From NCBI GenBank assembly GCA_034722015.1, contig JAYENI010000088.1:30574-94573 (forward strand): 64,000 nt of DNA, read 5' to 3'. Position numbers and translations under genes: made by a program. Shown here in pieces: positions 29,320-58,248 of the stretch. The notes beneath the pieces are model-generated. The model ran no database searches. It was not told where the DNA came from and saw nothing but the letters and a program-made list of their open reading frames with translations. The DNA comes from Pseudomonadota bacterium (GTDB lineage Bacteria > Pseudomonadota > Gammaproteobacteria > JAJDOJ01). Positions within the stretch are counted from its first letter, which is position 1. Every line of letters starts with the position of its first letter.

Positions 29320-30132
29320 TCAAACCGTCCGCTCCAGGACCAGTTCAAGCACGAACTTGCTGCCGAAATAGGCCAGCATCAGCACGACGAATCCACCCAG
29401 TGTCCACCGGATCGCGGTGCGTCCCCGCCAGCCGAAACGCCAGCGCCCGACAAGCAGGACCACGAAGACCACCCACGCCAGGATGGACAAAATGGTCTTG
29501 TGGACGAGATGCTGCGCAAAAATGTCTTCCAGATAAAAAAAGCCCGTTGCCAGTGAGACGCTGAGCAGCAGCACCCCCAGGCCGATCAGGCCGAAGAGGA
29601 GTTGCTCCATCAGCTGTAGTGGTGGAAGGGCGCGGATGATCCCCCCAGGGCGATGGTTGTGGATATGTCGGTCCTGCACCGCGAGCAGGACCGCCTGGAG
29701 CGCCGAGAGCGTCAGCACGCTGTACGCGAGCAGGGAAAAGAGTACGTGGACCTGAAGGGCGGGCTTGTCCGCGCTGATGATTGCGGCCTGGGCCGGGGCG
29801 AACTGGGTCAGGATGACACTCAGGGTGCATAGCGGCAGCACGGCGATGCCAAGGTTCTCCAGGGGGCGAACCGTCGCGCCGAGCCACAATACGCAAGAGA
29901 TCGTCAGCGCGACCAGGGCGGAGGCGTTGAAAATATTGAGGTCCAGCCCCAGTGGCAACAGGAGATGGTCATGAACCACAAGCGCGTGCAGGGGGATCGC
30001 GGCTGCCCACAGCAACAATGCGCCGGTCTTTTCCGTTTCGCCGCCCATGGCTATTCTGCGCAGACGCAGCAGCAGAAATGCCGTGGCGGACAGGTAAAGC
30101 AGTGCGGTGATCAGGCTGAAGGCGATATACAT
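29320..30132 (-). CDS. cytochrome c assembly-family inner membrane protein (YpjD-like)
   Basis: About 270 aa polytopic protein from MYIAFSLITALLY; adjacent to the corC-like gene as ypjD-yfjD in E. coli; the 86-codon upstream extension in the track is ignored. Confidence 0.7.
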   Translation of the reverse strand: MYIAFSLITALLYLSATAFLLLRLRRIAMGGETEKTGALLLWAAAIPLHALVVHDHLLLPLGLDLNIFNASALVALTISCVLWLGATVRPLENLGIAVLPLCTLSVILTQFAPAQAAIISADKPALQVHVLFSLLAYSVLTLSALQAVLLAVQDRHIHNHRPGGIIRALPPLQLMEQLLFGLIGLGVLLLSVSLATGFFYLEDIFAQHLVHKTILSILAWVVFVVLLVGRWRFGWRGRTAIRWTLGGFVVLMLAYFGSKFVLELVLERTV

Positions 30133-30405
30133 TTCGGTGTGCGCATTCGTTCCACGTAACGGGACTACTGTCGGTGAATCGGTTCCCGGTGGCAAGAAAC
30201 TGTTGACTGGTCGTGACGAATGACCGGTCGCTGCGATTGCGGCTATTGACGTCTTCGTCTGGTGGATCCGGGATGGACGAAGACCCTGTCGGTTCCAGCT
30301 ACCTTGATCGACCGTATCGTGGTAGCGTTGCCGCCAGTGTGAATCCAGTCCGACCGGGCGCTCCACCGGGGGGCTGCCGGATGTCTCCACAACCCCGGAC
30401 TATTC

Positions 30406-31101
30406 ATGTACCGACTGCTGCGCCTGTTTCGAACCTCGATCGGCAGCAAGCTGATGATGGCTGTCAGCGGCCTGGTACTGGTCGGGTTCGTGACGGGGCA
30501 TCTTGTCGGTAACCTGAAGGTCTTCCAGGGACAGGAGGCAATCAACGATTACGCAGCCTGGCTTCAGGGACATCCCCTGTTGTGGGGGATCCGTCTGACG
30601 ATTCTCGCGGTCTTCGCACTGCATGTCTACACGGGGATACGACTCGCCCGCGAGAACAGCGCCGCGAGACCCCGTCGGTACGCCGTTCGCACCGTTGTCG
30701 ACACCGGGTTTGCCGCCCGCCATATGCTCTTCAGCGGACTGACGGTCCTGGCCTTCGTGATCTATCACCTGCTGCACCTGACGATAGGGGTGATCCAGCC
30801 AGAGTACGCCGGTCTGCTTGACCGGGCGGGCCGCCCGGACGTCTACACACGCCTGGTTCTCGGACTGTCAAACCCCTGGCTGGCGGCAATCTACGCAACT
30901 GCCGTCGTCCTGGTGGGACTACATCTATGGCACGCCGTACGCAGCATGCTGCAGACCCTCGGGCTGGGACACGACGCCTGGCGACGCGCAACCGACGTTG
31001 GAACCGGCGTCTTCAGCACCCTGGTCGTTGCCGGGTTCCTGTCCATGCCCGTAGCGGCGCAACTCGGCTGGCTGAGCGTACCGCTCACGGTGCCACGATG
31101 A
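30406..31101 (+). CDS. sdhC: succinate dehydrogenase / fumarate reductase diheme cytochrome b subunit (type B, five-helix)
   Basis: 231 aa with conserved His in helices ([31 protein letters not shown]); stop overlaps the sdhA start. Confidence 0.75.
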
Positions 31102-33017
31102 GTGTGCGGCTCGATGCGCGTGTGCCGGATGGCGCCCTGGAAGACAAGTGGAACCACCGCCTGGACGCACTCAAACTGGTGAGCCCGGCCAATCGGCGAA
31201 AATATCGTGTGCTCGTGGTCGGTTCCGGACTTGCCGGTGCGTCGGCGGCAGCCACGCTGGCCGAACTTGGTTACCAGGTGGAGTGTTTTACCTTTCACGA
31301 CAGCCCGCGACGCGCGCACTCGGTCGCCGCGCAGGGCGGGATCAACGCGGCAAAGAACTACCAGAACGACGGGGACAGTGTCTACCGCTTGTTCCATGAC
31401 ACGATCAAGGGGGGCGATTTCCGGGCGCGCGAGGCGAACGTGTATCGCCTGGCTCAGGTCAGCAACCGCATCATCGACCACTGCGTGGCGCAGGGGATTC
31501 CGTTTGCGCGCGAGTACGGCGGGCTGCTGGACAACCGTTCCTTCGGTGGCGCTCAGGTCTCGAGAACTTTTTACGCGCGCGGCCAGACCGGACAGCAGTT
31601 GTTACTGGGGGCCTACGGGGCGTTGAACCGGCAGATCCACGCCGGACGTGTTCGGGTCCACACCCGCTGCGAGATGCTCGATCTCGTTCTGGTGGACGGC
31701 AGGGCGCGGGGGATCGTCACCCGCGACCTGGTGAGCGGTGGCATCGGACGGCATGCCGGACACGCGGTGGTGCTCGCCACCGGTGGTTACAGCAACGTCT
31801 TCTTCCTGTCCACCAACGCCCTGGGTTGCAACGTGACGGCCACCTATCGGGCCTGCAAGCGCGGCGCCTTGTTCGCGAACCCGTGTTTTACCCAGATTCA
31901 TCCGACCTGCATCCCGGCCAGTGGCGCGCACCAGTCCAAGCTCACCCTGATGTCGGAGTCCCTGCGCAATGACGGTCGCATCTGGGTACCGGTAAATCCC
32001 GGGGAAACGAGGGTGGCCGACAAGGTCCCCGAAGGTGAGCGTGACTACTATCTCGAGCGCCGTTATCCGGCCTTTGGCAACCTGACGCCCCGGGATATCG
32101 CGTCCCGGGCGGCCCGGCAGGTCTGCGATGAGGGGTGTGGTATCGGACCGACCGGGCGCGGCGTCTATCTGGATTTCGCGCAAGCCATTGGCCGTCTGGG
32201 GCGCGCTGCGATTGAGCAGCGTTACGGTAACCTGTTCAGCATGTATGAGCGCATCACCGGGGAAGACCCCTATCGGGTGCCGATGCGTATCTATCCGGCG
32301 GCGCACTACACCATGGGTGGTCTGTGGGTGGACTACGATCTGATGAGTAACGTCCCGGGGTTGTTTGTTATCGGCGAGGCCAACTTTTCGGACCATGGGG
32401 CGAACCGGTTGGGGGCGAGCGCGCTCATGCAGGGCCTGGCCGACGGTTACTTCATCCTGCCCCAGACCCTTGGCCACTATCTGGCCGTTGAGAGACCGGA
32501 CCTGCCGGATCCCGGTTGCGAATCCTTCAGTTCGGTGGAAGAAGACGTCGCGGTGCGTACGGCAAGACTGCTGGACATCGGTGGCGATCGCCCGGTCGAG
32601 AGCTTTCACAGGGAATTGGGCGAAATCATGGATTCGTGTTGTGGCATGGCCCGGAACGAAGCGGGGCTCAGAGAGGCGCTGGTTGCCATTCCCACGCTGC
32701 GTGAGGCGTTCTGGCGTGAGGCCTGCGTGTGCGGGAACGGGGAGGAGTTCAATGTGTCTCTGGAGCGGGCGGGACGCGTGGCCGATTTTCTGGAGTTCGC
32801 CGAGTTGCTTTGCCATGATGCGCTGGCGCGGGAGGAGTCCTGCGGCGCGCACTTCCGGGAGGAGCACCAGACCGGGGAAGGCGAGGCGGTTCGTGATGAC
32901 AAACACTTTTCGCACGTGGCGGCGTGGGAATACCGGGGGCAGGGTGTCGCGCCGCGTTGTCACCCCGAGCCCCTGACATTCGAGACGGTGCACGCTGTAA
33001 CCCGGAGTTACAAATGA
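31098..33017 (+). CDS. sdhA: succinate dehydrogenase / fumarate reductase flavoprotein subunit
   Basis: FAD-binding [12 protein letters not shown], covalent-FAD region [12 protein letters not shown], about 639 aa; start ATG overlaps the sdhC stop. Confidence 0.95.
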
Positions 33018-33799
33018 GACTCAGGCTCCGGGTGTGGCGCCAGCGATCCGCGGAACATGCCGGCCAGCTGGTCGGGTACGACGTGGACGGGGTGGAGGGG
33101 GACATGTCGTTTCTCGAAATGCTCGATCTGCTGAATCTGGGGCTGTCGCGAAAGGGCGAGGAGCCGGTTGCCTTTGATCACGACTGCAGGGAGGGCATCT
33201 GCGGGTCATGCTCCCTGGTTATCGACGGGGTCCCCCACGGACCGCGTTCGGCGACGACCGCCTGCCAGCTATACATGAGGCACTTCCGCGATGACCAGGC
33301 GATCGTCGTCGAGCCCTGGCGAGCCGCGGCCTTTCCGGTCATTCGGGACCTTGTCGTCGATCGAGGGGCCCTCGACAGGGTCTTGCAGGCCGGTGGCTAT
33401 GTATCCGTCAAGGCCGGGTCGGCCCCCGATGCAAACACACTGCCGGTCGCGCGACAGTGCGCGGAGCGTGCGTTCCAGGCCGCGTCCTGCATCGGCTGCG
33501 GCGCCTGTGTCGCCGCATGTCCAAATGCGTCGGCGATGCTCTTCGTGGCGGCCAAGCTCGGTCAGTTCGCCGCGCTACCGCAGGGACAGCCCGAGCGGAT
33601 GCATCGCGCCATCGCGATGGTCGAGTCCATGGACGACGAAGGGTTTGGAAACTGCGGGAATCACTACGAGTGCGTTGCCGTTTGTCCTAAGTCCATTCCC
33701 CAGGATTTTATCGCCCGGCTCAATCGGGAGTTCTTCCACGCCGCGATGACCGCCCACGAGTTTGCGTCGTTACCGGAGCACGAGGAGCATGAGGAGTAG
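33014..33799 (+). CDS. sdhB: succinate dehydrogenase / fumarate reductase iron-sulfur subunit
   Basis: 2Fe-2S ([10 protein letters not shown]) plus 4Fe-4S/3Fe-4S cysteine motifs ([24 protein letters not shown]); ATGA overlap with sdhA. Confidence 0.9.
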
Positions 33800-33801
33800 G
33801 G

Positions 33802-36648
33802 TTACGTCCCGGGCTCTTCTGCCGGGCCGGGTTTCGCGGGCAGCGGGCCGACGTCATCGTCTGAATCGTTTCGTCCCGCTCTCGAATCGGGTTCCGCAGA
33901 ACAGATCATCCTGAAAAACGCCTCGGCGGTTACCGGCCTTCCGAAGTGGAATCCCTGGAACACGTGGCACCCGCGTTTCTTCAGGAACTCGAACTGATCC
34001 TCGGTCTCGACGCCTTCGGCGACAGCTTCCAGCCCCAGATGTCCGGTGATGGAGATGATGGTTTCCACGATAGCGGCGTCCTGTGCGTCGGTCGAGATGT
34101 CCCGGACGAAGGAGCGATCGATCTTCAGGATATCCAGCGGCAGACGCTTGAGATAGGTCAGTGACGAATATCCGGTACCGAAATCGTCGATAGAAAGGTG
34201 CAGACCGTAGCGCTTCAGCCGGCGCATCTTGTGAATGATCTCGTCCAGATCGCCGAGAAGGGCGCCCTCGGTGATCTCGATTGTGATACGACTCGAGTCG
34301 ACCCCCGTTTCCTCAATGATTGAGGCGACGCCATTGACGTAGTCGTTCTGACGGAATTCGATCGGGCTGACGTTGATCGCCAGATAACGCATGCCGTCTT
34401 GACATTCACCGGTCTCCATCCAGCGCTTTAGCTGGAGACAGGCCTGGCGCATCACCCACCGGCCAACATGTAGTATCAGCCCCGTTTCCTCCGCCACGGG
34501 GACGAAACTGGCCGGTGGCACGGGTCCCCGGACAGGGTGGTCCCAGCGGAGCAGGACCTCCGCACCCACGATGTCGCCGGAGGCCTGTACCAGAGGCTGA
34601 TAGCTCAGGGATAGCTGGTCTTCGTCCAGCGCGTCGCGTAACTGGCTTTCCAGCGACAGGCGATGGTCCGCCTCTTTCTGCATTCCCGGCTCGAAGAAGC
34701 GGGTCCCGTTTCCACCGGCGTGTTTCACCTTGTACATGGCGGCATCGGCGTTGCGCAGTATGTCTTCGGACTGGCTACTGTCATCGGGAAACAGGGAGAT
34801 GCCGATGCTGGCCGTGACCTGGTAACGGTGCCCGCCGAGTTCAAAGGGTTCGGCGAGTGCCCGGCGGAGCTTGTCGGCAACGGCACGCACATCGGCGCCC
34901 GAATTCCCGGGTCCCGCGCCGAGTTCCGGCAGCACGACCACGAACTCGTCACCACCGATTCGCGCCACGCTGTCCTCGGCCCGCAGTGACCCGACCAGTC
35001 GCCGTCCTGCCTGGCGCAGCAGCTCATCGCCTACTGCGTGTCCCAGGGCGTCATTCAGCGTCTTGAAGCGATCGAGGTCGAAAAACAGTACCGCACCCTT
35101 TTTCGAATGCCTTGCCGCGAGTTGCATGTCGTGTTGCAGCCGGTCCAGCAGCAGGCGACGGTTGGCCAGACCGGTCAGGGGATCGAAGTAGGCCAGTCGT
35201 TCGATCGCTTCGGCGTCGCGGCGTTTACTGATCCCCATGCTGAGGACGTCTGCGACCTGCTCGAGAAAGGCCTGCTCGTGGGTCGAGTAAGCGTGTCCGT
35301 GGGGCACGTAGAACACCATGGCACCCAGGGTGGTCCGGTTGTCCGCCATAATCGGCACGTTGTAGTGCCCGTGAGGGGCCATGCCGGGGTACCGGGTGAC
35401 GTGGCGATCGTCCACGCAGTTGGCGAATTGCGTGCAGTGTTCCAGCGCCGCGCGTCCGCACAGGCACTGTCCGAACGGGACTTTCGCGCACAATTGCCGG
35501 ATTTCAGGCGCGAGATTGTGGCTGGAAACCAGTCTCAGTTCCTCACCGGTCTCAGTCGCCACGAAGATGCCGGCCTGTGGCAACACCTCCAGCCAGGGAA
35601 TCGCGTGGATCAGGCTGTCGAGCGACTGCTGCAGGAAAATTTCGAGGGGGTGACCTTCCAGGGACAGGCGAAGCAACACGCCCAGTGTCTGTTCCTCCGC
35701 CTCGGAACGGTCGCGCTGCTCGATATTGCCACGGAGTACCCTCGTCCTGCGCTGCAGGACGAGCTCGAATATCAGAAAGAGCAGCAGGATAGCCAGGGCC
35801 GAGCCGATCACGCCCAGCAGTGCCCAGCCGAACCAGCCGGGCCATTCCGAATGGGGCGCCTCGTCCAGCCATTCCTCGAGCAATCCGTAATAGATCGAGT
35901 CCGGATCCGCCTTGAGGTCTCCCAGGCGTCTGTCGATAGCCGCGACCAGCTCCGCACCGCCGGCCTTGTCCCCGGGCATCGCCAACCTGAGTCCTACGGG
36001 ATTGAAGATGACGGGCGTCCGCTCGATACCGCTTGACCTGCTTTCCGGTCCGGAAAACAGACGGGTTGCCAGGCCTGCGTCCGCATGCCCGAGTGCGATC
36101 GAATCCAGCACCTGGTCGTAGTTTGAGAAATCCCGGAAATCGATGGATATCTCGTAGGCGTCGGCCAGTTCGCGCAGCTTCCGGTAATGTATGTCGTCGC
36201 TGACGACGGCCACCCGCTTGCCGTCGAGGTCCCGGATCGACTCAATCCTGAGTCCGTCGCGCGCGAAGATCTTCCCCCAGTTGATAATGAAATTCCTGCG
36301 GTTGAACCGATAGCGCCGCAGTCGATCCGCATTCACCGCAATGGGTATGAGCAGGTCGATATCACCCGCGTCGAGCATCGCGAGACAGCGGGGAAATTCA
36401 CAGTGTACGTAGTCGAGTTTCCAGCCTTCCCGGGTGGAGATATCGTTGAACAACGCCGGAAGAAAGCCATCGATCTGTCCGGACTGGTCGAGAAAGACCA
36501 GCGGAGGGTTGTCGTATACGCCGATACGGAAGCTGGTATCGGTCCCGGCGCGGGCCGCGAAAGGAGCGGACAATAGCAGTGCTCCCAGCAGCAGCCAGCC
36601 GTAGGCCGGGCCTACCGACTGGCACGTTCGTCTGAATCCGCGTCCCAT
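33802..36648 (-). CDS. sensor protein: signal peptide - 2x periplasmic solute-binding (SBP_bac_3-like) - TM - GAF - GGDEF - EAL (c-di-GMP cyclase/phosphodiesterase)
   Basis: RIGGDEFVV (GGDEF); EAL-domain motifs (EVLLRW, DDFGTGYSSL, QGFHFGRP); GAF region between them; 948 aa. Confidence 0.85.
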   Translation of the reverse strand: MGRGFRRTCQSVGPAYGWLLLGALLLSAPFAARAGTDTSFRIGVYDNPPLVFLDQSGQIDGFLPALFNDISTREGWKLDYVHCEFPRCLAMLDAGDIDLLIPIAVNADRLRRYRFNRRNFIINWGKIFARDGLRIESIRDLDGKRVAVVSDDIHYRKLRELADAYEISIDFRDFSNYDQVLDSIALGHADAGLATRLFSGPESRSSGIERTPVIFNPVGLRLAMPGDKAGGAELVAAIDRRLGDLKADPDSIYYGLLEEWLDEAPHSEWPGWFGWALLGVIGSALAILLLFLIFELVLQRRTRVLRGNIEQRDRSEAEEQTLGVLLRLSLEGHPLEIFLQQSLDSLIHAIPWLEVLPQAGIFVATETGEELRLVSSHNLAPEIRQLCAKVPFGQCLCGRAALEHCTQFANCVDDRHVTRYPGMAPHGHYNVPIMADNRTTLGAMVFYVPHGHAYSTHEQAFLEQVADVLSMGISKRRDAEAIERLAYFDPLTGLANRRLLLDRLQHDMQLAARHSKKGAVLFFDLDRFKTLNDALGHAVGDELLRQAGRRLVGSLRAEDSVARIGGDEFVVVLPELGAGPGNSGADVRAVADKLRRALAEPFELGGHRYQVTASIGISLFPDDSSQSEDILRNADAAMYKVKHAGGNGTRFFEPGMQKEADHRLSLESQLRDALDEDQLSLSYQPLVQASGDIVGAEVLLRWDHPVRGPVPPASFVPVAEETGLILHVGRWVMRQACLQLKRWMETGECQDGMRYLAINVSPIEFRQNDYVNGVASIIEETGVDSSRITIEITEGALLGDLDEIIHKMRRLKRYGLHLSIDDFGTGYSSLTYLKRLPLDILKIDRSFVRDISTDAQDAAIVETIISITGHLGLEAVAEGVETEDQFEFLKKRGCHVFQGFHFGRPVTAEAFFRMICSAEPDSRAGRNDSDDDVGPLPAKPGPAEEPGT

Positions 36649-36848
36649 TTCCCCGTTTTCATCCTCTGTTCTGAAATAGGGGTAAGCCCGTACGCCGAAT
36701 TCTACCGCGTTCCCGGTCAGGCCACATTGGCGCGTACCATGGAGTCCGCCCGTGACAGATGCGCACAGGGAGGTTCGCCAATCCCTTGCGTACGTCCGCG
36801 GCAGGATAAGCTTTTCTGCGCTGTTGTGACGCAGTCAACAACAGTGAA

Positions 36849-36864
36849 TGTGAGGCATTTCACA
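36849..36864. promoter_or_regulatory. perfect CRP-consensus box TGTGA-ggcatt-TCACA, about 97 bp upstream of the class-II phosphodiesterase gene
   Basis: Read directly; a second, imperfect palindrome TGTTGTGAC-gca-GTCAACAACA lies just upstream (about 36822-36843). Confidence 0.5.
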
Positions 36865-36960
36865 GCAAGCGGCATTCTACATCCCGGGATGCGGTACGGA
36901 GGATTATGGCGTGCTAGCATCGGTTGTCCGGCGGCTAGAGCGTGAAGAGCGGCGATATCA

Positions 36961-37728
36961 ATGCGCGTTGAAATTCTGGGTTGCAGCGGGGGAATTGGCG
37001 AGGGCCTGCGAACCACATCCATGCTGTTGGGAGACGAGGTACTGATCGACTGCGGGACCGGTGTCGGTAACCTGTCTGTCGAGCGGATGCGAAAGCTTCG
37101 GCACATCTTTCTCACACACCAGCACCTCGACCACATCGCAAGCCTGCCGCTGCTGGCCGATACGCTCTACGAGACCCTACAGGTGCAACCCCTGGTGGTC
37201 CATTGCGAACCCTCCACTTACGAGACCTTGCGCGCTCATGTATTCAATTGGGAGGTCTGGCCGGATTTTTTTCGGTTGCCGCAAGGGAAGGACCCGGTGC
37301 TTCGGTACCTGCCGATCATGCCGGGCGAGTCCCACAGGGTGAATGACCTCGAAATCCAGGCCATACGCGTCAACCATGTGGTTCCGGCGCTGGCGTATTA
37401 CGCCTCCGACGCCCACTCAGCGATGTCCTTCAGCGGTGACACGACGACCAACGACACGCTTTGGGATGCCCTGAATGCCCATGAGTGTCTGGATCTGCTC
37501 GTCGTCGAATGTGCCTATCCGGAGAGCGGGCGGGAACTGAGCACGATGGCCCGTCACTATTGCCCCTCGCTGCTGGCGCAGGACCTCGGCAAACTGAACC
37601 ACGATCCCAGGATCTGCATTTCCCACCTCAAGCCCGGTTCCGAACCGGAAACCATAGACGAGATCAACGCACTTCTGTCGGGTCAGGTAGGTCACCGGCT
37701 GACAAACGGAGAAGTGTTCGAGATCTAG
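36961..37728 (+). CDS. class-II-type 3',5'-cyclic-nucleotide phosphodiesterase (MBL fold)
   Basis: THQHLDHIASLPLL matches the class-II cAMP-PDE signature H-x-H-L-D-H; 255 aa, no signal peptide. Confidence 0.7.
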   Translation: MRVEILGCSGGIGEGLRTTSMLLGDEVLIDCGTGVGNLSVERMRKLRHIFLTHQHLDHIASLPLLADTLYETLQVQPLVVHCEPSTYETLRAHVFNWEVWPDFFRLPQGKDPVLRYLPIMPGESHRVNDLEIQAIRVNHVVPALAYYASDAHSAMSFSGDTTTNDTLWDALNAHECLDLLVVECAYPESGRELSTMARHYCPSLLAQDLGKLNHDPRICISHLKPGSEPETIDEINALLSGQVGHRLTNGEVFEI

Positions 37729-37850
37729 TGCTCTATCCAGGTGATGTGCGAGTTCAGTTGACAAGAGAATGGCCATTGCCTGCACACTACGCCTCGCTGC
37801 GAAACACCAGGGGGAACGCTGAATCCGTAATTATCAGTTGGATAGCGCAC
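37728..37850. mobile_element. MITE-like element, copy A2 (about 123 bp; an internally deleted relative of A1) with the same terminal inverted repeats
   Basis: Termini gtgctctatccagg ... ccagttggatagcgcac; the internal sequence is colinear with the ends of A1. It again abuts a TAG stop codon, this time of the phosphodiesterase gene. Confidence 0.55.
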
Positions 37851-37857
37851 TGGTGCG

Positions 37858-37988
37858 CTGCTGAAAAATGTCTCGGGTGTGTGCCACGCAAAGCAGAATC
37901 GGGCGAGGAAGCGCGGTTTACACGCAGAAAATATGCAACCGGGGCCCGACTTTAACGCCAAATGGTGCCGCCTGAGGGCTTTCATCAG
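37858..37988. repeat. intergenic repeat family B, copy B2 (about 131 bp)
   Basis: See B1; located immediately after MITE A2 and upstream of ffh. Confidence 0.55.
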
Positions 37989-38069
37989 ATTGCCAGGGCG
38001 CCTGGCCGCGTTGGCAGCCCGTGATCGTCTATAATGCGGCACTTTTCAGATAGCGCAAACGGGTAAACG

Positions 38070-39431
38070 ATGTTCGAGAACCTGAGTGAGCGACTTGCGG
38101 GCACCGTCAAGCACCTGAAGGGGCAGGCGCGGCTCACCGAAGACAATATCAGCGATACCCTGCGGGAAGTCCGCATGGCACTGCTGGAGGCGGATGTGGC
38201 GCTTCCCGTCGTCCGGTCCTTTATCGATGACGTCCGGGAACGCGCCCGCGGTCAGGATGTGTTGCACAGCCTGACGCCGGGGCAGGCGCTGATCAAGGTC
38301 GTCAATGACGAGTTGGTGCGGGTCATGGGTGAGGCCAACGAGGGCCTGAACCTTCAGGCACGGCCTCCCGCGGTGGTCATGATGGCCGGTCTGCAGGGCG
38401 CGGGCAAGACGACGACCGTCGGCAAGCTGGCGCGCTGGCTCGCGGAAAATTCCGGCAAGCAGGTGATGGTCGCGAGCTGCGACGTGTACCGTCCCGCCGC
38501 CATACAGCAGCTGGAAAAACTTGCCGCAGAGGTTGGGGCGGTTTTCTATCCGAGCGAAAACGGACAAGACCCGGTGGAGATTGCGAAGGGCGCCCTGGAA
38601 AGAGCGCGTACGCAGGTCGTGGACGTTCTGATACTGGACACCGCCGGCCGTCTTCATATCGATGAAGCGATGATGGAAGAGGTCGCCCGTATCCATTCGG
38701 CGGTCGATCCCGTCGAGACGCTGTTCGTCGTGGACAGCATGACCGGGCAGGATGCGGCAAACTCCGCCAGGGCGTTCAACGACGCACTGCCACTGACCGG
38801 TGTCATCCTGACCAAGACCGATGGCGACGCCAGGGGCGGCGCGGCGCTATCGGTCAGGCATGTGACCGGAAAACCGGTCAAGTTTATCGGTGTGGGTGAG
38901 AAAACCGCCGCGCTGGAACCGTTTTATCCGGATCGTATCGCCTCGCGCATACTGGGGATGGGCGACGTCCTGGGTCTGGTGGAAGAGGCGCAGCGCAACG
39001 TCGATCAACGCGAGACCGAGAAACTTGCCAAAAAGCTGAAGTCCGGCAAGGGATTCAGCCTGGAAGACCTGAAAACACAACTCGAGCAAATGCTCAATAT
39101 GGGAGGTGTCGCCGGGTTGCTGGACAAACTCCCCGGCGCAACGTCTCTGCCGGCCGCCGTCAAGAACCAGGCCGACGACGGCGAAATTCGCCGGATGATT
39201 GCCATCGTCGACTCAATGACTCGCCGTGAACGGCGTTTCCCCGAGATGATCAAGGGGTCTCGAAAGCGACGGATTGCCAACGGCTCGGGAACCCGCGTCC
39301 AGGACGTGAACCGACTGCTGAAGCAACATACCCAGATGCGCAAGATGATGAAGAAATTCTCCAAGGGCGGCATGAACCGTTTAATGAGGGGAATGAAAGG
39401 CAGGATGCCCCCTGGCATGCCTTTCGGATAG
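38070..39431 (+). CDS. ffh: signal recognition particle protein Ffh
   Basis: N, G (GLQGAGKTTT) and Met-rich M domains; 453 aa. Confidence 0.97.
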   Translation: MFENLSERLAGTVKHLKGQARLTEDNISDTLREVRMALLEADVALPVVRSFIDDVRERARGQDVLHSLTPGQALIKVVNDELVRVMGEANEGLNLQARPPAVVMMAGLQGAGKTTTVGKLARWLAENSGKQVMVASCDVYRPAAIQQLEKLAAEVGAVFYPSENGQDPVEIAKGALERARTQVVDVLILDTAGRLHIDEAMMEEVARIHSAVDPVETLFVVDSMTGQDAANSARAFNDALPLTGVILTKTDGDARGGAALSVRHVTGKPVKFIGVGEKTAALEPFYPDRIASRILGMGDVLGLVEEAQRNVDQRETEKLAKKLKSGKGFSLEDLKTQLEQMLNMGGVAGLLDKLPGATSLPAAVKNQADDGEIRRMIAIVDSMTRRERRFPEMIKGSRKRRIANGSGTRVQDVNRLLKQHTQMRKMMKKFSKGGMNRLMRGMKGRMPPGMPFG

Positions 39432-57610: not shown

Positions 57611-58081
57611 TCACATGTGGTGACTGAACAAACCTTCCCTAGCGTTGCCCATCAGGGCGCGAAAATTATCCGCGCTTACCTTGACAAGGGATTCGTGATC
57701 ACCTGCCTCGAAATAGACTTCCTGCTCTCGCCCCAGATGTGAGTCCCAGAGTGCCTGTATCCCGTAGGCGTCCCCGACTGGAGGTGCGGCACCGCGGGCG
57801 CAATCCGGGAACAGGTCGCTGAGTTCGTCCTCGGTTGCCATGCCCACGATGTTGTGAATTTCCTCACCGACCTTTTCAAGATCGAGGTGATAGTCGGCGG
57901 GAATCACGACCATGGCGTAGTGGTCGTGCGTCTTTACGACGACGGCCTTTGCCAGCCGGTCACCGGGAACGTGTGCCTCCTCGGCCGACTCCAGACTCGA
58001 CCCGGTACGCGTGTGCGACACAAGTTCGAAAGGAATCCCGTTCGAATTCAGGTAGGTGTTCAGTTTGGTTGCGATTGCCAT
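57611..58081 (-). CDS. YbaK/ProX-family aminoacyl-tRNA deacylase domain protein
   Basis: 156 aa from MAIATKLNTYLNSNGIPFELVSH with the YbaK-like fold signature (..KAVVVK....VVIPADYHLDL.K). Confidence 0.65.
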   Translation of the reverse strand: MAIATKLNTYLNSNGIPFELVSHTRTGSSLESAEEAHVPGDRLAKAVVVKTHDHYAMVVIPADYHLDLEKVGEEIHNIVGMATEDELSDLFPDCARGAAPPVGDAYGIQALWDSHLGREQEVYFEAGDHESLVKVSADNFRALMGNAREGLFSHHM

Positions 58082-58248
58082 TTGTCGCCCTCGGTTCCGG
58101 AAAATGGTTTCCAATGAAATCATGGACTGGATCCGGGGGGCTTGCAAGCGGAGTCGCCGGGTTGTCTGATTGATGTCAACGCAGGGGCGGATCGGCGGCC
58201 GCGAGAACGGCCAGGCCCCCTGTCGGCGGGCTCTGCCAAGCATGCGAT

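Follow-up and report, generated by a model that had tools for sequence, protein, structure and literature searches.

A CRP-type operator upstream of a putative phosphodiesterase gene

The 64 kb stretch of DNA analysed here (the window, from contig JAYENI010000088.1) holds an open reading frame (ORF) of 255 amino acids (aa) for a putative phosphodiesterase (PDE) of the metallo-beta-lactamase (MBL) fold. Upstream of it lies a 16-bp palindrome of the type bound by CRP, the receptor protein for cyclic AMP (cAMP). The features of this locus, with positions counted in the window, are the following.

36825..36840, no strand assigned: weak second CRP-like site TGTGACGCAGTCAACA, 2 mismatches
36849..36864, no strand assigned: CRP-type operator TGTGA-GGCATT-TCACA with perfect half-sites, unique in the window and conserved among orthologous loci
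36912..36920, plus strand: TGCTAGCAT, extended -10-like element (TG-n-TAGCAT) of the presumed PDE promoter, a conserved motif
36961..37728, plus strand: gene for a putative cytoplasmic MBL-fold, class-II-type 3',5'-cyclic-nucleotide phosphodiesterase of 255 aa (Pfam, AlphaFold2, Foldseek)

The operator, TGTGAGGCATTTCACA at 36849-36864, was found to be the sole exact match to TGTGA-N6-TCACA in the window, with an expectation of 0.04 per 64 kb and at least one match in 4 of 100 dinucleotide-preserving shuffles. The original prediction, made from the sequence alone, had named exact CRP half-sites at this position upstream of a phosphodiesterase gene with an HQHLDH signature, and both statements held, the gap between the box and the ATG of the 255-aa ORF being 96 nt. 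The box is located in a divergent intergenic region of 312 bp, about 208 bp from the start of a GGDEF-EAL gene on the other side. The window's only other CRP-like site with at most 1 mismatch, TGTGAATTTCCTCACC at 57853-57868, falls within a coding ORF (57611-58243, minus strand, aminoacyl-tRNA editing domain) and is consistent with chance, because 1.6 matches of this quality were expected in the window.

Orthologous loci, given below by their L numbers, were obtained from a genome scan (3 close loci), from exact-protein look-ups and from a metagenome scan queried with 30 aligned homologues (80 loci). For the count of boxes, 80 non-redundant 300-bp upstream regions were compared with mononucleotide shuffles. 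Perfect boxes were found 6 times (shuffle mean 0.015), boxes with at most 1 mismatch 14 times (0.56) and boxes with at most 2 mismatches 33 times (8.4). The PDE coding sequences, representing 2.5 times more DNA than the upstream regions, yielded 0 sites with at most 1 mismatch, and all 9 perfect boxes (6 of them non-redundant) in 849,494 bp of orthologous-locus DNA were located upstream of the PDE gene. Mapping the boxes on a neighbour-joining tree of the PDE proteins, the entire clade of the window (window, L028/L113, L035, L033 and L029; protein identity 56-82%) was found to carry a box with 0 or 1 mismatch, its centre 99.5-107.5 bp before the PDE ATG. Parts of a second clade carry it as well (L080, perfect at -106.5; L056, perfect at -264.5; L102, 1 mismatch), and the remaining clades showed degenerate sites or no box. 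The arms of the conserved boxes are constant, the 6-bp spacer is variable (GGCATT, GGCAAC, GTGTAA, GCCAGA, ATTCCG) and the flanking DNA does not align between loci, a pattern that fits the operator of a dimeric protein and not an RNA hairpin. Absence of the site from orthologous promoters had been named beforehand as a result that would speak against it; the comparison was made and the site was conserved. These data support the view that the box is a real, conserved CRP-type cis-element upstream of a probable cyclic-nucleotide phosphodiesterase gene.

Between box and gene, the motif TGnTAGCAT was found perfectly preserved in 14 of 69 ffh-linked orthologous upstream regions versus 0.28 in shuffles, mostly 35-52 bp before the PDE ATG. 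The distance from the box centre to the start of its hexamer was 58.5 or 59.5 bp in six diverged loci (window, L028, L029, L033, L035 and L080), the last of which belongs to another clade and differs in G+C content. With the hexamer at -12 to -7, this spacing places the box centre at about -70.5 or -71.5. Class I CRP activation sites in Escherichia coli promoters are centred near -61.5, -71.5, -82.5 and -92.5, and the box would fit this geometry if transcription starts where the motif predicts. The -35 position of the window reads CGGTAC, effectively no -35 element, and promoters that depend on an activator are usually built in this way, with a weak core and an upstream site at such a phase. 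Due to the lacking -35, the PDE promoter was not detected by a simple promoter scan, which solely returned a weak sigma-70-like match on the minus strand (36930-36903) at chance level, 1 found versus 0.6 expected. The spacing on the PDE side was unchanged with either GGDEF-EAL (window, L113) or ypjD (L029, L035) as divergent gene, which points to the PDE gene as the target of the box.

Further candidate elements were observed in the intergenic regions. The original prediction had proposed an adjacent imperfect palindrome as a second CRP site. The palindrome is present at 36822-36843 and contains TGTGACGCAGTCAACA, 24 bp upstream of the main box centre; as a binding site, however, it is weak, at chance level (15 CRP-like matches with at most 2 mismatches in the window versus 21 expected) and lineage-specific, being retained among the relatives solely in the closest one, L028/L113. 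A perfect 12-bp palindrome, CATCCCGGGATG at 36880-36891, downstream of the CRP box and ahead of the -10-like element, was rejected as a second operator, as it is not conserved in L113. Rfam at gathering threshold returned no RNA family for the whole window, hence the intergenic region is without a known riboswitch or small RNA. A good box in L056 (1401-1416) and in L102 (-136.5 relative to the PDE ATG) is followed 54.5 bp on by CATGTTAGCAC/CATGTTATCAC-TAG. In L056 this motif is found at about -210, far upstream of the PDE ATG, and the layout of the two loci suggests that this clade has either an extended 5' leader or another start site. A recurrent non-coding motif, (a)aTGATGGCATa, was noticed in the ypjD-PDE intergenic regions of L041, L042, L044, L046, L048, L055 (two copies), L063, L067, L081, L086 and L089, with the variant TGATGGCAC in L045 and L051. 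It stands at about -110 to -277 from the PDE ATG, differing in position from the TGnTAGCAT element. Its form TGATGGCAT was considered as a ypjD start codon on the opposite strand and rejected, since no long ORF begins there.

The putative phosphodiesterase and its relatives

Residues 52-58 of the protein read THQHLDH, by which both the typical class II motif HxHLDH and the motif [T/S]HxHxDH are satisfied. Of what we take to be the PROSITE-type class II signature, only the first part was matched. Using Pfam, Lactamase_B_2 (54.7 bits) and PDEase_II (PF02112; 49.4 bits, cut-off 23.7) were found. The ligands of a binuclear metal site (HxHxDH, then His, Asp and His), i.e., H53, H55, D57, H58, H139, D160 and H222, are present and invariant among 30 homologues. 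The AlphaFold2 model reached a confidence (pLDDT) of 96.5 and shows the MBL fold, the N-terminus forming its first beta-strand, so that no signal peptide is present. Foldseek placed YhfI of Bacillus subtilis (6KNS, E 9e-17), BA1088 of Bacillus anthracis (1ZKP) and yeast PDE1 (4OJV; query-normalised TM-score 0.83) at the top, with RNase Z and Apyc1 ranking after them. The best single-sequence match in the PDB was likewise yeast PDE1 (4OJV), with the HxHLDH block and an HVFNxxxWPD block aligned. The earlier assignment to cytoplasmic class-II-type cyclic nucleoside monophosphate (cNMP) phosphodiesterases is thus backed by fold, motif and metal ligands, and appears probable.

Neighbouring families of the fold were matched less well. 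NCBIfam gave sub-threshold matches only, among them the RNase Z models NF000801 (53.2 bits versus a cut-off of 252) and TIGR02651 (50.5 versus 292.95), far too low for membership in RNase Z/ElaC. Compared with the RNase Z chains that it matches, the model, a compact domain of 255 aa, is shorter by about 50-65 residues; judged from this length, the flexible-arm exosite for tRNA binding would be absent. The motif of the atypical class II enzymes (NF041851) is present, but the score of 41.7 bits is far from the cut-off of 400. Apyc1 (PF23023) is listed in precomputed Pfam tables, while our own hmmscan at E<=1 returned none, and PADLOC gave no defence-system match for the PDE or the GGDEF-EAL protein. 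Names in the databases vary for family members, '3',5'-cyclic-nucleotide phosphodiesterase' and, on JGI relatives, 'ribonuclease BN' both being used. The family comprises 6106 clusters at 90% identity (E<=1e-3). An exhaustive search of 50%-identity representatives gave 2396 (E<=1e-3), 1132 (E<=1e-10) and 313 (E<=1e-30). The statement that class-II phosphodiesterases are rare in bacteria, also part of the original prediction, does not apply to a family of this size.

Evidence on the substrate came from a sister clade of the enzyme (identity 44-47%; hosts Sideroxydans-like and others). In 12 of 12 loci of this clade the PDE gene directly follows a gene for a CHASE2-class III nucleotidyl cyclase (743 aa) and is itself usually followed by genes for a cNMP-binding/rhodanese protein (358 aa) and a GAF-MshEN-T2SSE ATPase (about 800 aa). 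The loci are:

L001, 3749-10288: sister-clade cluster
L096, 1749-8271: sister-clade cluster
L002, L003, L087, L094, L098, L099, L101, L107, L110 and L112: further loci with the cluster

This arrangement provides strong guilt-by-association for a 3',5'-cNMP substrate. A putative 3',5'-cNMP hydrolysis by the PDE is indirectly supported by this cluster and by the CRP box of the window. The sister-clade PDE gene is not found beside ffh and forms part of a tight same-strand cluster instead, which looks like a self-contained cyclase/PDE/receptor module and possibly controls a type II/IV secretion or pilus ATPase. A tblastn search of all loci with an approximate E. coli CRP sequence found the cNMP-binding protein of L096 as the only match.

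Gene neighbourhood and host

The genes surrounding the PDE gene in the window are the following.

29320-30390, minus strand: ypjD
30406..33799, plus strand: sdhC-sdhA-sdhB, B. subtilis-type succinate:quinone oxidoreductase (domain matches)
33802..36648, minus strand: divergent neighbour, a 948-aa SBP_bac_3-TM-GAF-GGDEF-EAL protein (domain matches), context outside the conserved module
38070..39431, plus strand: ffh (SRP54; TIGR00959, 575.8 bits), followed by rpsP-rimM-trmD-rplS

The usual layout of the orthologous loci is corC and ypjD on the minus strand, divergent from PDE, ffh, rpsP, rimM, trmD and rplS on the plus strand. Of 67 testable loci, 52 have ffh as the next gene after the PDE gene (median gap 66 bp), and on the divergent side ypjD is the neighbour in 52 of 66. 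The window differs in that corC and ypjD are located 6.8-7.8 kb off the PDE gene, because sdhCAB and the GGDEF-EAL gene were inserted between them. This block of about 6.3 kb (30406-36648) was common, among the fetched loci, to one other lineage only, L113/L114 (2471-8709 in L113), whose Ffh and PDE share 91% and 82% identity with those of the window; L032 represents the window's own sequence in a second assembly. The divergent 948-aa GGDEF-EAL enzyme was correctly foreseen, with SBP_bac_3, GAF, GGDEF and EAL domains all recovered. Its proposed physical coupling with cyclic di-GMP (c-di-GMP) signalling was not borne out, as the adjacency is confined to the window and L113/L114 and hence represents a recent, lineage-specific arrangement and no conserved 'node'.

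In the three loci that were scanned (window 37729-38069, L113 9803-10000, L029 6769-6974), no terminator-like structure separates the PDE gene from ffh. The gap is about 340 bp in the window and 27-130 bp in most loci. Co-transcription of the PDE gene with ffh-rpsP-rimM-trmD-rplS is thus possible.

The nearest named relatives by Ffh were Ectothiorhodospira, Thioalkalivibrio, Acidihalobacter, Thiohalobacter and a Solemya symbiont (71-76% identity). The host appears to be an uncultured, sulfur-oxidiser-like gammaproteobacterium.

Proposed feedback on cyclic AMP, alternatives and known systems

We consider it moderately probable that the locus represents a class I-type, CRP-activated promoter driving a cAMP/cNMP phosphodiesterase as negative feedback. 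The idea that cAMP-CRP promotes expression of its own degrading enzyme, already part of the original prediction, is supported as the best reading by the conserved box and its activation-compatible position. The 16-bp palindrome would serve a CRP/Vfr-type cNMP-receptor transcription factor as operator, about 70-71 bp upstream of the presumed start of an extended -10, -35-less promoter. Upon a rise of cAMP, cAMP-CRP would bind the box and recruit RNA polymerase via the C-terminal domain of its alpha subunit (alpha-CTD), leading to more transcription of the 255-aa binuclear-metal MBL-fold phosphodiesterase. The enzyme would convert 3',5'-cAMP to 5'-AMP, and the signal would fall back in a homeostatic negative feedback.

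Several points weigh against this reading. We infer the promoter, its start site (placed from the motif), activation as opposed to repression, the identity of the regulator and its ligand, and cAMP as the substrate. The PF02112 match covers profile positions 82-141 only, 60 of 340, and the profile of the family gives much the same score, near 1e-12, to RNase Z, YhfI and PDE1. We know of no close homologue of the PDE that has been assayed. The box copy in L028/L113 carries one mismatch (GCACA), and many orthologous promoters, including those of a beta-proteobacterial clade, are without a box, so that the regulation would be specific to some clades. No crp, cyclase or cNMP-binding gene was found in the 64 kb window by tblastn with the approximate E. 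coli CRP sequence, a class III cyclase and a cNMP-binding protein as queries. A literature search on CRP/cAMP in Chromatiales and Ectothiorhodospiraceae found nothing relevant, and to our knowledge cAMP-CRP physiology is undescribed in sulfur-oxidiser-like Gammaproteobacteria. The phased conservation of the operator in several lineages provides indirect evidence for a regulator of CRP-type specificity.

Vfr, Clp, GlxR and mycobacterial Crp share the specificity for TGTGA-N6-TCACA, so that the sequence of the box alone does not identify the ligand. A CRP-family regulator sensing another ligand at the box, either c-di-GMP like Clp of Xanthomonas or cGMP, is unlikely; in that case the nucleotide under feedback would be a different one, or the turnover of cNMPs would be coupled to the state of c-di-GMP. 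Another ligand would agree with the GGDEF-EAL gene diverging from the PDE gene in the window and L113, and with the related MBL-fold phosphodiesterase Rv1339, which hydrolyses cAMP, cGMP and 2',3'-cNMPs (PMC9293780). However, this gene adjacency was found in two close relatives only, the box is conserved well beyond them, Rv1339 is inactive on c-di-GMP (PMC9293780) and no Clp-like or cGMP-specific regulator is in evidence. It is rather unlikely that the box is functional and the enzyme is no cAMP phosphodiesterase but an RNase Z/ElaC-like nuclease, a hydrolase of 2',3'-cNMPs or of cCMP/cUMP (Apyc1-like), or a general phosphodiesterase; with another substrate the gene would be an ordinary member of a CRP regulon, and no feedback would result. 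The best NCBIfam matches are indeed the RNase Z models (53 and 50 bits), the family profile fits RNase Z as well as PDE1, Foldseek also finds RNase Z and Apyc1, and the precomputed PF23023 entry and the JGI label 'ribonuclease BN' point the same way. Against this, the RNase Z scores are far under the cut-offs (53 versus 252, 50.5 versus 293), a chain of 255 aa would leave no room for the tRNA-binding exosite, the HxFNxxIWPD block is common specifically to yeast PDE1, the cyclase/PDE/cNMP-binding cluster of the 12 sister loci points to 3',5'-cNMPs, and neither a PADLOC match nor a phage context was found.

We regard it as quite improbable that the box chiefly serves the gene on the divergent side (GGDEF-EAL in the window, ypjD in other loci) or both genes at once. 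The position of the box in the 312-bp divergent region about 208 bp from the GGDEF-EAL start, the weak minus-strand sigma-70-like match at 36930-36903 and the CRP control of c-di-GMP enzymes known in Klebsiella pneumoniae (PMC5025149) are compatible with this alternative. The distances to the PDE ATG and the TGnTAGCAT element are, however, conserved while the divergent gene and the distance to it vary, and the minus-strand promoter match is at chance level (1 versus 0.6 expected). A chance palindrome without function would be in line with the few exact matches that a genome of a few Mb should hold at about 0.04 per 64 kb. This explanation is effectively refuted by the conservation of position and sequence across diverged loci, where every perfect box in 849 kb precedes a PDE gene.

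Returning to cAMP-CRP feedback on the phosphodiesterase, a wider and improbable extension can be formulated. The MBL-fold family may be the main cAMP phosphodiesterase in a large set of non-enteric, largely sulfur-oxidising/chemolithoautotrophic Gammaproteobacteria, its gene being fixed between ypjD and ffh at a distance of usually about 30-130 bp from the latter, with a CRP-activated promoter that also reads into ffh-rpsP-rimM-trmD-rplS. If this holds true, read-through would bring signal recognition particle and ribosome-maturation genes under the control of cAMP in organisms without classical catabolite repression. At the level of the family, comparative genomics now provides support for a function of a large set of putative phosphodiesterases, none of which is known to have been assayed. 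Three independent lines, fold plus motif, the CRP-type operator and the cyclase/receptor operon, point to cyclic mononucleotides. The operator further implies that uncultured and little-studied gammaproteobacterial relatives of Ectothiorhodospira, Thioalkalivibrio and Acidihalobacter possess a CRP/Vfr-type regulon.

Compared with known enzymes, the PDE shares the MBL fold, the HxHLDH motif and the H-x-F-N-x-x-I-W-P-D block with yeast PDE1 (4OJV), CpdP of Vibrio fischeri and PdsA of Dictyostelium (PF02112). It is, however, about 100 residues shorter than these typical class II enzymes, with only the core block matching the profile, and is cytoplasmic where V. fischeri CpdP is periplasmic. Rv1339 of Mycobacterium tuberculosis, YhfI of B. 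subtilis and CpdA of Corynebacterium glutamicum were described as 'atypical class II' cNMP phosphodiesterases with the motif [T/S]HxHxDH, related to the HxHLDH class (PMC9293780). Rv1339 and YhfI (6KNS) resemble the PDE in size (about 250 aa), fold and motif, whereas sequence identity to YhfI is about 20% and the NF041851 score stays far below its cut-off. Apyc1 (7U2R, 7U2S) is an MBL-fold cyclic-mononucleotide phosphodiesterase of similar size as well (TM-score 0.71-0.73, 0.73 to 7U2R). It serves phages against Pycsar, whereas the PDE locus is chromosomal, in a housekeeping position beside ffh and without defence context.

With respect to regulation, CpdA of C. glutamicum (Cg2761) was reported as an MBL-fold class II cAMP phosphodiesterase (Schulte et al. 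2017, as cited in PMC7026483 and PMC9293780). There, too, an MBL-fold PDE occurs together with a global regulator, GlxR, which is a CRP homologue with TGTGA-N6-TCACA-like sites; that enzyme is, however, atypical class II (the PDE here scoring 41.7 bits versus the equivalog cut-off of 400) and belongs to another phylum. In C. glutamicum, GlxR probably also controls cpdA. The closest regulatory parallel is Pseudomonas aeruginosa, where Vfr-cAMP activates cpdA in a negative feedback on cAMP (Fuchs 2010, as cited in PMC3535393). In both cases a CRP-family regulator with cAMP raises, or here would raise, its own PDE by a TGTGA-type operator logic that serves cAMP homeostasis. The P. aeruginosa enzyme is a class III (calcineurin-like) CpdA, whereas the PDE described here is of the MBL fold and class-II-type, its regulation being deduced from comparative genomics only. 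As it is known from Pseudomonas that the receptor activates the enzyme which degrades its ligand, the conceptual gain is modest. What appears new is the operator on a different, large branch of class-II-type phosphodiesterases in Gammaproteobacteria, which the comparative data tie to cNMP signalling in two independent ways.

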